Source: an uncultured Tangfeifania sp.
GTDB lineage: Bacteria; Bacteroidota; Bacteroidia; Bacteroidales; Prolixibacteraceae
Assembly (NCBI GenBank): GCA_964528535.1
Contig: CAZGSQ010000019.1
Location: forward strand, 10,605-34,604
Direction: 5' to 3'
Length of the DNA stretch: 24,000 nt
In this document: in pieces, positions 4,200 to 8,191 of the stretch
Numbering within the stretch: the first letter of the stretch is position 1
Layout: each line of letters opens with the position of its first letter
Translations under genes and position numbers: made by a program
The notes under the pieces: model-generated
What the model was told of the DNA's origin: nothing
The model's database searches: none
What the model saw: the letters and a program-made list of their open reading frames with translations, nothing else

Positions 4200-6572
4200 A
4201 TGAAAACATTTAGCCTCTTTGTGCTGCTTCTCACCTTCGGATTCTTGTCAAGCGCACAGGATCAGGGCCCCATCCCCCAGTTAAGCAAACAGCTGACCGA
4301 TTATTACAATGCAAACCCCGGCGTGAAGGTATATGTTACCACCGACAAGACCCACTACAAACCTGCTGAAACAATCTGGTTTCAGGTGCTGGTGACCGAA
4401 GAAATTTTTCCATACCTTACCAGGGAGAGCGGTGAACTCATCGTTAAACTCTTCGATGCACAAGGAAAATCTGAAATCCAGCAGCTTTTCAAACTGAAGA
4501 ACGGCTCGGCCTCCTGCGATGTAAAATTACCGAAAGAGATGTCGAAAGGAATCTATTTCCTCTCTGTCTACAGCTCTGAATCAAACACTTTTGGAGAGGT
4601 TAGCACAACGGCACTCAGCATCGATCCTGAATACAACAACCAATGGACCCTCCGCACCAGGTTTAAAGACAGTATCTCGTCTGCAGGGCAAAAAAATGAA
4701 CTCTACGCCGAGTTGTCTGACCTTGGCGGCGAAAAGAAGAAGAACACCACCATTCGCTATCAATTGACAAATGGGACTGAAATTCTGGAAAAAGGAAAAA
4801 TTAAGTCGGATGAAAATGGGAAAATGACCCTGCCATTTACGATGCCATCCAAGACCAATGGCCAGCCATTCGTTCTTGAAATCAACGACAAGGATACCTG
4901 GGAGAATGATCTTTTCGTACCTTCCGGACTTGATTCGGTGGTGATCAGGTTCTTCCCCGAAGGCGGAACCCTGATTCCGGGCACTCCCTCCAAAATCGGA
5001 TTTACAGCCTTCAACAAATGGGGAATACCCGTCGATGCGGAAGGCACGATCCTGAATGAAACAGGCAGCACCGCCGCACAGATCAAAACTTTCACAAGGG
5101 GATTGGGCTTTTTTTCAATGGTCTGCGAGGCAAATCAAAAATACAAGCTGGTGCTTTCTGGTAAAATGGGTGAAAAGCAGACCTTTCAACTTCCTGTTAC
5201 GGATCCCAAGGGACTTACCTTGTCTGTTGTAAAGACAGATGCCGATTTTATCTCGGCCAACCTGATCTTTGCTGACAAGCAGAAACATGCCGTTGCACTG
5301 ACAGTCACCCAGGGCAGCAGCATCTTCTGGGCGGCAGATATGGATGTGGATGGCACAGGAAGAATCAAAATACCCGCAGTCAACATCCCACAAGGCATCA
5401 ACCTGCTCTCTGTTTTTTCGAAAGAGGGAGTGCTTATGGGAGAAAGAATTGTCTATATGGACAAAAAACTCGAACTAAAAGTCACTGTATTGCCCGAAAA
5501 ATCATCCATTGCTCCTGACAATACCCTTAAAGTCAAGATCCTCTTAACCAACGAAAACAACCAGCCTGTTGCCGGAAACGTAACTGTCCGGGTTTCGGAT
5601 CAGTACCGCAACGAATATGCCCAGCCCAGAATAAATGAATTTCTGCTCCTCGGTTCGGTGCTTGAAACACCCTTCTCCCTTGTTTCGGGTGCGATGAAAG
5701 GGAAGATCGCACAGTCAACGCTTTTGGATGTTTTTCTGATAGCCAACAAGATAAAGGGCCACGATTGGGAGAAGATCAAAAATTTCAGACCCGATCAGGT
5801 TCAGGGAGGAAAAGAGCGGCTGAATTTTAGCGGCAACAAAAATCTGGAAGTACAATTTTCCGGATACATTTCGAAATGTGCACAAAATTACAAGCTGATG
5901 TACAGAAACAAGATCCCGGATGCAACCTATTTGAGCAACAATGCAGCGCTCTTTGTGAAAGCACCCAAATTGTTCAAAACAAACAACACTGCCCTCGACA
6001 ACCAACGCAAGATGTTCGCCTCCTCCTCGAGTATCCTGGAAGTGATCAAGACCCTGAAACCTTACAAGGTTGTTAGCAACCAGATCGTCTTCATAGGCAG
6101 TGAAAATTCGTTAAACTACCAGGGCGGCGCCCTCATCGTCCTGGATGGTCAACAATTGGGAACTGACATCTCGGCGCTATCCAGCATTTCGCCCATGGAG
6201 GTTGACCACATCAACGTATCCACGAATGCCATGGACATTCAGCGCTACACGGGTTTGAATTCGGTGGGTGTCATCGAAATTTTCCAGAAGAAAGCAACCG
6301 TCAGGGAGGTAAAAACGGCGGATGAGTCCTCCGAAAAATACGAGAACGGATACCGGTTGCCTAAACAATTCGCCGCCGAAGCTGCTACCTCAAAAACAGA
6401 TCTCCGTACCACCCTGCAGTGGATTCCTCTTCTCTCAATCGATCAGACAGGTCAGGCCGAATTTTCTGTTGGCACAGGGAAAGTCCTCAGCGATTTTGTG
6501 GTAGAGGTGGAGGGAATCACCACCGATGGCCGTTTGGGACACGGCCAAAGCAACATTAAGGTGGTTTTTTGA
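4200..6572 (+). CDS. Secreted large protein with Ig/MG2-like repeats and a TonB-plug-like segment near the C-terminus
   Basis: 790-aa ORF with a signal peptide (FSLFVLLLTFGFLSSAQD). Residues around 640-700 (ALIVLDGQQLGTDISALSSISPMEVDHINVSTNAMDIQRYTGLNSVGVIEIFQKK) look like a TonB-dependent-receptor plug motif, but no barrel follows. Function unknown. Confidence 0.55.
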   Translation: MKTFSLFVLLLTFGFLSSAQDQGPIPQLSKQLTDYYNANPGVKVYVTTDKTHYKPAETIWFQVLVTEEIFPYLTRESGELIVKLFDAQGKSEIQQLFKLKNGSASCDVKLPKEMSKGIYFLSVYSSESNTFGEVSTTALSIDPEYNNQWTLRTRFKDSISSAGQKNELYAELSDLGGEKKKNTTIRYQLTNGTEILEKGKIKSDENGKMTLPFTMPSKTNGQPFVLEINDKDTWENDLFVPSGLDSVVIRFFPEGGTLIPGTPSKIGFTAFNKWGIPVDAEGTILNETGSTAAQIKTFTRGLGFFSMVCEANQKYKLVLSGKMGEKQTFQLPVTDPKGLTLSVVKTDADFISANLIFADKQKHAVALTVTQGSSIFWAADMDVDGTGRIKIPAVNIPQGINLLSVFSKEGVLMGERIVYMDKKLELKVTVLPEKSSIAPDNTLKVKILLTNENNQPVAGNVTVRVSDQYRNEYAQPRINEFLLLGSVLETPFSLVSGAMKGKIAQSTLLDVFLIANKIKGHDWEKIKNFRPDQVQGGKERLNFSGNKNLEVQFSGYISKCAQNYKLMYRNKIPDATYLSNNAALFVKAPKLFKTNNTALDNQRKMFASSSSILEVIKTLKPYKVVSNQIVFIGSENSLNYQGGALIVLDGQQLGTDISALSSISPMEVDHINVSTNAMDIQRYTGLNSVGVIEIFQKKATVREVKTADESSEKYENGYRLPKQFAAEAATSKTDLRTTLQWIPLLSIDQTGQAEFSVGTGKVLSDFVVEVEGITTDGRLGHGQSNIKVVF

Positions 6573-6582
6573 AAATGCTCTT

Positions 6583-6897
6583 TTAACTCTTTAGAACCGT
6601 TTCTTAACCCTTTAGAACCAATTTTTAACTCTCTAAAATCGTTTTTTAACCCTCTAAAATCGTTTCTTAATCCTTTAGAACCGATTTTTAACCCTTTAGA
6701 ACCGGTTTTTAACTCTCTAAAATCGTTTTTTAACCCTCTAAAATCGTTTCTTAACCCTCTAAAACCGATTTTTAACTCTCTTAAATCGATTTTTAACCCT
6801 CTAAAACCGATTTTTAACTCTCTTAAATCGATTTTTAACCCTCTAAAACCGATTTTTCATGCTTCAGAACGACTGCATAAACTTTCAGAACCCTTGC
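6583..6897. repeat. Tandem array of 21-bp direct repeats: 13 clear copies plus 2 degenerate copies
   Basis: Unit starts counted by hand at 6583, 6604, 6625, 6646, 6667, 6688, 6709, 6730, 6751, 6772, 6793, 6814 and 6835, every 21 bp exactly. Consensus TTAACCCTCTAAAACCGATTT. Degenerate copies lie at 6856-6876 and 6877-6897, the last running into the mcrC stop codon. There are no spacers, and stop codons occur in all frames. Confidence 0.92.
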
Positions 6898-8189
6898 ATT
6901 GGCTTTTGGAAGGGTAAAATGCATTTCTGACCGTTCATTTCAAGGGGTATCGTGCTCAGTAGTTCAATACAAATTTCTTTTTGCCATTGAACTACGTCTA
7001 ATGTATTTTGTGGGATTTTCAATTTTATAATTGAACAGGGATAAACTTGTGATTCACCCTTTTCATGGCAAAAGAAACCGGAAGAAGAAAAGTCTGAATC
7101 AAGTGGATAAACTAATGCAGTAAAGTTGGAATCAAAATATTTTGTATAAACATACATCTGTTTTAAGTCATCATCAGAAGGCCGGGAACCCTTCAATACT
7201 TTCCATTTTGTGTCAAGCACATAAGTTTCAGCGCCCCGTTGGATAATGATATCTGGTATCATTCCAACTTTTGCATTCAATTCTGACTCCCAAAACGCCT
7301 TTTTTACCTGTCCTTTAATCTGGTAGTCAACTGGCGAAAATTTTTTAAGACTGGAAAGTACAAAACGTTCCCACAATGTATTCATGTCAAACATGAGGGC
7401 TAATACATGATTCTGACCACGACTAATGTCAGGATGGTAGTTTAGTAATAATAGCCGTGCAATATTGATGGCCTCCCGATAACATTCCGTTTTCCTGTTA
7501 TATTGTAAGTGATAAAATGTTGTCTCGGAAACTTTAATATCAGGCATTTCCGGGAAGTTAAGAAGCAAAGAACCAATCCGGCTCTGCAAGGCTGAAGAAG
7601 TGTTGACCTTATTGACAAGCAACAACGCTTTATAAATTATCTGATTGAACAGATTTTGTCTGTCATAGGTTTGATGATTCACATAGAATTGTTCCTGGTG
7701 CACCAAGTTTTGCTGAATATGCTTAGAAAAGATCAATTTCCCTTTTAATGACAGGCTGTTCTCTTCTTGCCTGCGGTATTGCCTGATCAATCCTTTGTGA
7801 ACCAGATGTTCAAGTTCCGTGATGAAATTTTCAAAATAGAGGTCTAAGATTGAATTTGATTTGAGCTTTAAATCTGTACTCCCGGCAGTACTTACTTTCA
7901 ATGTTTTTACCGCTCTAAGCATACCAATAAGTATTTTTCTCCAATGGCCTTCCTCATTGGATTGATCTGACTTGGGTAGCACTTCAATTACCAAAGAATC
8001 AACCTGAATAATACCTACATGTTGGTTGAATTTTACTCCGTTGTGAATGAGACTGAAATATTTGGTCCCTTTTTCCCCATAGTACCGCTGAAGAGCCAAA
8101 AGATGCCTCTGCTCAAAGCCTTCATGGTATCCGGGTCTGAGACTTTGATGTTCGTAGGTGGTAATGATATTTCGTCCTGGTGAGTTCAT
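6885..8189 (-). CDS. mcrC: McrC-like nuclease subunit of a McrBC-type modification-dependent restriction system
   Basis: 434-aa ORF starting 2 nt after the mcrB stop. The C-terminal PD-(D/E)xK-type motif MIPDIIIQRGAETYVLDTKWK is typical of McrC. Confidence 0.8.
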   Translation of the reverse strand: MNSPGRNIITTYEHQSLRPGYHEGFEQRHLLALQRYYGEKGTKYFSLIHNGVKFNQHVGIIQVDSLVIEVLPKSDQSNEEGHWRKILIGMLRAVKTLKVSTAGSTDLKLKSNSILDLYFENFITELEHLVHKGLIRQYRRQEENSLSLKGKLIFSKHIQQNLVHQEQFYVNHQTYDRQNLFNQIIYKALLLVNKVNTSSALQSRIGSLLLNFPEMPDIKVSETTFYHLQYNRKTECYREAINIARLLLLNYHPDISRGQNHVLALMFDMNTLWERFVLSSLKKFSPVDYQIKGQVKKAFWESELNAKVGMIPDIIIQRGAETYVLDTKWKVLKGSRPSDDDLKQMYVYTKYFDSNFTALVYPLDSDFSSSGFFCHEKGESQVYPCSIIKLKIPQNTLDVVQWQKEICIELLSTIPLEMNGQKCILPFQKPMQGF

Positions 8190-8191
8190 AT

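Follow-up and report, generated by a model that had tools for sequence, protein, structure and literature searches.

A 21-bp tandem array beside a defence island in an uncultured Tangfeifania sp. is probably one locus of a young, species-restricted minisatellite family

Introduction

Bacterial variable-number tandem repeats (VNTRs), among them the mycobacterial interspersed repetitive units (MIRUs), consist of related tandem units of tens of bases spread over many intergenic spacers, with higher-order duplication and decayed edge units. Unlike the 21-bp family described below, MIRUs are 40–100 bp long, often lie inside operons, overlap stop and start signals and show documented copy-number polymorphism. 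Direct repeats of another kind make up the plasmid iterons and the sopC site of the F plasmid; these are recognised by a Rep or ParB-type protein whose gene lies alongside. Here we describe a tandem array of 21-bp units in a 24,000-nucleotide stretch of contig CAZGSQ010000019.1 from an uncultured Tangfeifania sp. (Prolixibacteraceae). This stretch is referred to as the window, and positions are counted from its first letter. The array lies at the edge of an inserted defence island, and together with related arrays of the same genome it is called family A. Scattered related units, higher-order duplication and decayed edges make family A VNTR-like.

The closest described system is BrickBuilt of Porphyromonas gingivalis, a spacer-less, intergenic and species-specific 23-nt minisatellite present in 19 copies (Klein et al. 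2015, PMC4596501). BrickBuilt is one of the miniature inverted-repeat transposable elements (MITEs), with conserved leader and tail subunits and small inverted-repeat ends, and bidirectional promoter activity has been measured for it (PMC4596501). Family A resembles BrickBuilt in occurring in Bacteroidota, in its spacer-less units of about 21–23 nt, in its intergenic position, in its several copies per genome and in its restriction to one species. However, it has a 21-nt rather than a 23-nt unit and occupies 3–5 loci rather than 19; it lacks a leader and tail, a common flank and terminal inverted repeats, and the array contains no Bacteroidetes -7 motif.

Shorter units are also common in bacterial spacers. 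Heptamers dominate long simple-sequence repeats (LSSRs), a finding of Mrazek et al. (2007) as cited in PMC4679880, and TAACTGA direct repeats occur in Beggiatoaceae, cyanobacteria and five Bacteroidetes (MacGregor 2015, PMC4679880). Family A differs from LSSRs and from the cyanobacterial short tandemly repeated repetitive (STRR) sequences in its unit: it has no 7-bp unit and no 7- or 14-bp sub-period, but a 10/11-bp one.

Structure of the array

Tandem Repeats Finder (TRF) recognised a single array at 6581–6857, which was scored both with period 21 (13.2 copies, score 330) and with period 84 (3.3 copies, score 401) and was by far the top-scoring tandem repeat within the window. The unit table, a pairwise mismatch matrix and autocorrelation placed the core array at 6583–6855, with 13 head-to-tail units and the consensus TTAACCCTCTAAAACCGATTT. 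A first-pass annotation of this DNA had reported 13 spacer-less units in exact phase, and this description was confirmed: in register 6583, units start every 21 bp with zero indels and are contiguous. As no spacers lie between the units, the array does not have the repeats parted by unique spacers that characterise clustered regularly interspaced short palindromic repeats (CRISPR).

The unit identities reported earlier were also reproduced in the unit table. Units 3–4 equal units 7–8 and units 9–10 equal units 11–12; unit 13 is identical to both 9 and 11. Units 1–8 form two 84-bp blocks (1–4 and 5–8), which are the older ones, and units 9–13 form 2.5 perfect 42-bp blocks, giving 105 bp of perfect 42-bp periodicity. 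The two alternating variants named in the first-pass annotation both exist, but the units actually fall into four core types, CTTTAGAACC, CTCTAAAATC, CTCTAAAACC and CTCTTAAATC.

The unit is itself a degenerate dimer of 10/11-bp half-units (TTTTTAACCC and TTTAGAACCGA), with the half-unit pattern TTTWRAACC. Autocorrelation of the array, with a base level of 0.31, rose to 0.83 at lag 21 and to 0.43–0.44 at lags 10–11; at lags 7 and 14 it was 0.26, and a sub-period of either length was thus not detected. The 10/11-bp sub-period was seen at four family A loci. The earlier remark that 21 bp corresponds to two helical turns therefore holds, given this dimeric unit and the strong curvature predicted for the array (see below).

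The array spans a spacer of 312 bp that separates an MG2-like gene from mcrC, two genes whose 3' ends converge. On the mcrC side it is followed, as had been proposed, by two decayed units in phase (6856–6897). Units 14 (6856–6876) and 15 (6877–6897) match real units at 13/21 and 14/21 positions, respectively; random 21-mers from the window reach at least 13 matches with P = 0.005. These units overlap the last mcrC codons, and unit 15 holds the mcrC stop codon (6885–6887). On the other side, a possible decayed unit 0 (6562–6582) matched at 11/21 positions, which is marginal (P about 0.045). Because this segment contains the TGA stop of the MG2-like gene (6570–6572), the left edge of the array is sharp, and it lies about 8–9 bp past that stop.

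Related arrays in the same genome

The genome assembly comprises 4.47 Mb in 386 contigs, with 87% completeness and 6% contamination, and encodes 22 SusD-family genes, which mark the bin as Bacteroidota. Its contigs (genome G000) are labelled C, and the studied array is C19. When the consensus was searched against the whole genome with up to 4 mismatches, it also matched C3 and C94, where 21-bp arrays of 9–10 units are located. An nhmmer profile built from the C19 units recovered C94 at E = 4e-8 and C3 at E = 0.004. Two looser arrays with the same CTTTAGAA-type core were found on C37 and C88. Family A thus comprises 3–5 intergenic loci (two firm and two looser ones, plus C19), and its related tandem units of 10–100 bp at several unlinked intergenic loci are those of an interspersed minisatellite.

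Inspected by eye, the neighbours of the sister arrays included genes for a purM-type AIR synthase, an OmpA-like protein, pta, a hydroxyacyl-CoA dehydrogenase, a GDSL/hydrolase protein and a DUF1080-like protein. Array orientation was inconsistent. At C19, C3 and C88 the array lies 3' of a co-oriented stop (at a distance of 42 bp at C3 and 32 bp at C88), and at C37 and C94 it is upstream of and antisense to the nearest gene. Blastn of the 300-bp flanks revealed no flank common to the family A loci, and no pair of left and right terminal inverted repeats of at least 8 nt was found at the arrays. A MITE or leader/tail structure was therefore rejected for family A, as none was found in the 300-bp flanks or at the array ends.

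Distribution beyond the genome

A pattern of three cores, with up to 3 mismatches, gave 24 matches in the genome itself, whereas 24 further genomes from the genus gave no match. Blastn against 72,556 plasmids and 50,697 phage records returned no match, viral contigs contained no match to the family A pattern, and two family A patterns had no match in JGI metagenome contigs. The search for the 21-mer beyond its locus that the first-pass annotation had proposed was thus positive within the genome, at C94 and C3, but negative in plasmid records.

In a screen of 185,579 species-representative genomes, three CTYTARAA cores at a spacing of 21 bp were found at more than 119 loci, many of them in Bacteroidota. 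At these loci, the other 13 unit positions were no closer to the family A unit than shuffled tails: seven loci agreed at 9/13 positions against 7.5 expected, and two at 10 against 1.5. The loci were therefore treated as unrelated 21-bp arrays that happen to hold the 8-mer. A cross-species family was rejected on the same grounds, and a likeness to arrays of Flavobacterium endophyticum and 'FLAVO1' was dropped.

Dispersed or long 21-bp arrays of their own are present in other Bacteroidota genomes. In the termite-gut Tannerellaceae metagenome-assembled genome (MAG) Gsp477_bin92, 21-bp arrays with the unit ...CTTTCTTTAGAAAG... were observed on four contigs (L045, L046, L069 and L096), and F. endophyticum DSM 29537 (L073) has a 21-bp array of about 20 units. 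Both appear to be analogous to family A in kind only.

Coding and promoter signals

The first-pass annotation had denied the array coding potential on the ground that TAA or TAG interrupts every frame. This ground was wrong, as two frames are open: a plus-strand frame in phase with the upstream gene (6573–6917, 114 codons) and a minus-strand frame (6452–6856, 134 codons). The non-coding status itself was upheld. Neither open frame has an in-frame ATG, GTG or TTG before or inside the array, and a Pfam scan of these frames gave nothing above the cut-off. Six of the nine variable unit positions fall at codon position 1, and there was no bias of the synonymous type. We also considered a coding repeat, or an extension of the MG2-like protein by read-through, and rejected both, because the relatives share the same C-terminal end and neither a start codon nor a Pfam match was present.

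The array had further been described as free of internal hairpins. This was roughly right in that no stable fold was predicted, but some units contain a perfect 10-bp palindrome, AAATCGATTT. It is perfect in units 10 and 12 only, and the other C19 units carry the degenerate form AAAAYCGRTTTT. The corresponding dyad element in C94 is AATCGATT, and the units of C3 and C37 lack the palindrome. In a centromere-like site of the sopC, parS or parC type, each unit would be expected to carry a dyad-symmetric binding site. A promoter reading was rejected as well: the array contains no TAnnTTTG motif and only two weak sigma-70-like matches (9 of 12 positions).

Insertion context

The left flank of the array is formed by the MG2/alpha-2-macroglobulin-like gene (4200–6572, plus strand; Pfam PF01835), a core gene whose orthologues in the genus show 48–59% identity; it is preceded by a DUF5916 gene. 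In three relatives from the genus (L004, L005 and L011), tblastn placed the MG2-like gene and mnmE next to each other, convergent and 2–55 bp apart. The segment 6573–21642, which contains the array and a 15-kb island, is therefore an insertion. Pfam matches and GC content support this: GC is 0.32–0.39 across 6601–14400 and 0.43–0.51 in the flanks. In other relatives different DNA follows the MG2-like gene, and the junction is therefore a variable hotspot. The earlier placement of the array at an island boundary between convergent 3' ends proved exact, because synteny puts it precisely at the left junction of the insertion.

To the right of the array, all island genes are on the minus strand. 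According to Pfam, mcrC (6885–8189; PF10117), the first gene of the island, is followed by McrB, a SocA/MqsA-type antitoxin pair, a KAP NTPase with a collagen-like tract, the S and M genes of a type I restriction-modification (R-M) system, an IS200-like Y1 transposase and HsdR. The core gene mnmE (trmE; 21643–23115, minus strand) marks the far edge and is followed by an Hsp20 gene.

The closest McrC homologue (G101, 77% identity) belongs to another genus of the family and ends in ...LLTHIES*. No array lies downstream of it, so the array did not travel with that module. In the window, McrC extends about 19 residues (PLEMNGQKCILPFQKPMQGF; 6885–6945, minus strand) past this end, and the decayed units hold its final codons and its stop. 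None of the 10 orthologous loci examined from relatives, each with about 1.5 kb of flank, contained a 21-bp array.

Heptamer arrays in the spacers of the genus

Across the genome, TRF loci peaked at periods of 7 (154 loci, 124 of them intergenic), 14 (47) and 21 (46), and they were mostly intergenic. Intergenic 21/42-bp arrays of at least 80 bp occupied convergent, divergent and tandem spacers in a ratio of 4:3:11, which is near the genome's 446:448:2191. Arrays of CTCATAW-type heptamers were present in 21 of the 24 congeners, and the reversed control gave 0 matches. Rotation of the genus heptamer CTCATAA gives TAACTCA, which differs from the TAACTGA repeat (PMC4679880) at a single base. In the genome studied here, the heptamers CTCATAT, CTCATAA and CTCATGT were observed at about 150 loci (e.g. 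C37:22539-22654, C119:76-323 and C161:1208-1387). These heptamer arrays lay in convergent and divergent spacers at a ratio of 12:3, in a genome where both kinds of spacer occur equally often.

The spacer between purM and the OmpA-like gene could be compared across species. Heptamer arrays were found at this orthologous position in 11 of 13 relatives, and the other two had an empty 57-bp spacer. In the genome studied here (C37:22303-22650), a family A array abuts a heptamer array in this spacer. Both kinds of repeat thus occupy the same spacers, but family A is species-specific, whereas the heptamers are genus-wide. The heptamers of the relatives' purM spacers (L202–L214) differ by species and, where inspected, form inverted pairs (e.g. 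AAAGGAT...CCTTTAT, AGATATA...ATATCTC and AAGGCTA...CTTTAGC) that create a long imperfect palindrome.

We considered a heptamer origin for the 21-mer, as CTTTAGC, CTTTAAC and CTTTATC at the C37 site of relatives resemble the core. Family A lacks a 7/14-bp sub-period, however, and this candidate was kept as no more than a hint.

Origin and possible function

We favour, with moderate confidence, the reading that the array is neutral and belongs, as one locus among several, to a young family of non-coding 21-bp minisatellites that is interspersed in the genome and confined to this species. Structure, dispersal, species restriction, non-coding nature and insertion context are shown by the data above, whereas the mode of growth and the lack of a dedicated function are inferred. 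Slipped-strand mispairing and unequal exchange would have enlarged and homogenised the array at its present site, in steps of 21, 42 and 84 bp. Its latest amplification may have occurred on the mcrC side, where the unit variants CTCTAAAA and CTCTTAAA depart from the inter-locus core CTTTAGAA, and the edges would have decayed. The variable site offers a 3'-3' spacer in which it is probably tolerated, and the spacers of this genus turn over tandem repeats, mostly heptamers, quickly. The array is best read as a member of this spacer repeat population and not as a device of the island.

If so, the array is a clean example of the fast gain of lineage-specific minisatellites in Bacteroidota spacers. 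Such arrays fragment short-read assemblies, so that copy numbers in bins are unreliable, and they create open frames that may be mis-called as genes. They could also serve as strain markers.

Three observations weigh against this reading. First, related units occur at unlinked loci with no visible vehicle, which pure in-place slippage does not explain; the route by which they arrive there is a question for the whole repeat class. Second, in an 800-kb sample of one complete congener, heptamers occurred at the same density (31/100 loci) and no 21-bp array of at least 70 bp was found. A general bias towards slippage in multiples of 7 bp is therefore insufficient, on its own, to account for long 21-bp arrays. 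Third, agreement between the loci is highest in the CTYTARAA positions and the TTT run, as would be expected of a motif that is read out. This count is biased because the core itself served to select two of the five loci. Together with the perfect phase, the agreement nevertheless argues for some constraint. Within C19, the core common to the other loci persists only in units 1, 2, 5 and 6; in the units that repeat perfectly, and are presumably the youngest, it is altered at two or three positions, and this counts against strict sequence read-out.

Among the alternatives, a row of docking sites fares best, although we consider it unlikely. A DNA-binding protein, either nucleoid-associated or a dimeric regulator, would bind at intervals of two helical turns along a single face of a curved segment, and the family loci would be organised or insulated chromatin-like patches, which here would part the island from the core gene. 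The exact 21-bp phase, kept over 13 units without an indel, is consistent with such sites. So are the 10/11-bp sub-period at four loci, the dyad elements of C19 and C94 and the greater agreement between loci in the CTYTARAA core. However, the presumed youngest units are mutated in the shared core, the palindrome is missing from two of the sister arrays, and the orientation to neighbouring genes is inconsistent. As the family is absent from the 24 congeners searched, the protein that reads it would also have to be equally young.

The curvature part of this proposal was assessed with a dinucleotide wedge model, using Bolshoy parameters; all values are predictions only. The controls behaved as in the literature (A6N4 0.39, A4T4N2 0.43 and T4A4N2 0.99). 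For the array, the predicted ratio of end-to-end distance to contour length was 0.385, as low as that of the controls with phased A-tracts; it was higher in 99.7% of random genomic segments (0.88). The array is thus predicted to be intrinsically curved, with A/T tracts recurring once per helical turn. However, 27% of 21-bp arrays built from shuffled units were predicted to be equally curved. Only C19, C37 and an unrelated array on C129 were predicted to be curved, and C94, C88 and the arrays of two further repeat families (B and C, see below) were straighter than most shuffled-unit arrays. Curvature therefore belongs to the C19 array and not to the class, and we rejected it as a shared function of the family. 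A more specific version seems improbable: a lineage-specific protein that reads the TTTWRAACC half-unit with its CTTTAGAA core would polymerise on one face of the curved segment and insulate transcription units and the island junction.

It is slightly less probable still that the array acts as RNA, either as the 3' tail of the MG2-like mRNA or as antisense RNA from mcrC, and provides a platform for RNA-binding proteins or a buffer for convergent termination. As no intrinsic terminator was predicted between the MG2-like gene and mcrC, transcription from either side should run into the array, and at C19, C3 and C88 the array is located 3' of a co-oriented stop. For the heptamer direct repeats of Beggiatoaceae, cyanobacteria and some Bacteroidetes, a translational or post-transcriptional role has also been suggested (PMC4679880). 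On the other hand, no Rfam family, terminator or stable fold was predicted on either strand of the array. The centroid fold of the array RNA was almost unpaired, and the z-score of -4.2 on the plus strand was attributed to self-complementarity of the repeat. The position upstream of and antisense to the nearest gene at C37 and C94 does not fit this role either.

We regard it as very unlikely that the array is, or descends from, an att-like or hotspot recombination target at which the island entered. It does sit at the exact left junction of the 15-kb insertion, just past the stop of the core gene, and the MG2/mnmE junction carries different inserts in different relatives. The McrC frame that runs into the decayed units suggests, moreover, that the array may predate the arrival of the island. 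However, the island has no integrase or recombinase gene except the IS200-like Y1 transposase, and the other family loci are not beside islands. In k-mer comparisons, the 330-bp junction before mnmE contained no 21-bp repeat and shared no direct or inverted repeat of at least 9 bp with the array junction, and the empty or differently filled sites of relatives lacked such a repeat. Of the earlier suggestion that the array marks an integration or recombination hotspot, the variable site thus stands, but an att site lacks both a junction repeat and an integrase.

The proposal of the first-pass annotation that the array is iteron- or centromere-like (of the sopC/parS type), left by a replication or partition module of a plasmid, an integrative and conjugative element or a phage, was largely refuted and now seems scarcely credible. 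Like iterons and sopC, the array consists of direct repeats of similar length on one helical face; with 13 × 21 bp, it offers the several direct repeats of roughly 17–22 bp in helical phase expected of an iteron origin, and it lies at the edge of horizontally acquired DNA. However, the annotation had itself noted that the window lacks partition, replication and integrase genes, and a Pfam scan of 15 open reading frames (ORFs), the main non-nested ones of the window, supported this. No Rep, ParA or ParB family was detected in these ORFs, in which McrBC, toxin-antitoxin, KAP, type I R-M, Y1 transposase, MnmE and Hsp20 families were found instead. DnaA boxes (TTATCCACA, up to 1 mismatch) were not enriched (7 matches against 7.3 expected) and none clustered at the array, no plasmid, phage or viral relative was found, and the sister arrays are dispersed beside chromosomal housekeeping genes. 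Had it been an iteron or centromere, the array would have pointed to a hidden replicon or to a partition system of a new kind; it does not.

An assembly artefact of the short-read metagenome bin, affecting the repeat number or the higher-order pattern, is equally hard to credit. In its favour, the bin is fragmented and partly contaminated, the 42-bp periodicity of units 9–13 cannot be counted with small k-mers, and the Logan contig SRR12676971_61351 (L033, run SRR12676971) breaks off within unit 4 of the array, at the start of the first exact internal duplicate. However, this independent contig has exactly the same sequence over the junction and the initial three and a half units, related arrays exist at several other loci, and the phase is kept free of indels across diverged units. 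The array is therefore real, and only its copy number is uncertain. The count of 13 units is uncertain especially for the perfect 42-bp blocks, as no other assembly spans the whole array.

Further repeat families in the genome

Besides the heptamers common in the genus, the species has several extra 21/42-bp families. Family B (AATCCATTTTTCGGTGCATGA), whose unit is really 42 bp, is present at six or more loci (C80:14409-14724, C86:5875-6273, C105:6764-7023, C126:7784-8050, C141:2141-2320 and C153:1141-1331). Family C (ATGTAAGGGATCGAAAATCTT) has a 7/14-bp sub-period and was observed at three loci (C150:6076-6277, C207:1588-1783 and C65:13824-13943). Further 21/42-bp repeats include an array of eight 42-bp units (C53:5609-5947) and a G-rich array that is predicted to be extremely curved (C129:5708-5906; ratio 0.17). 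A dispersed repeat of roughly 165 bp, with copies that are 88–100% identical, adjoins one family B array (C86:6409-6573), and other copies of it were found at C1:103433-103597, C14:38558-38716, C159:4626-4705 and C241:2916-2970.

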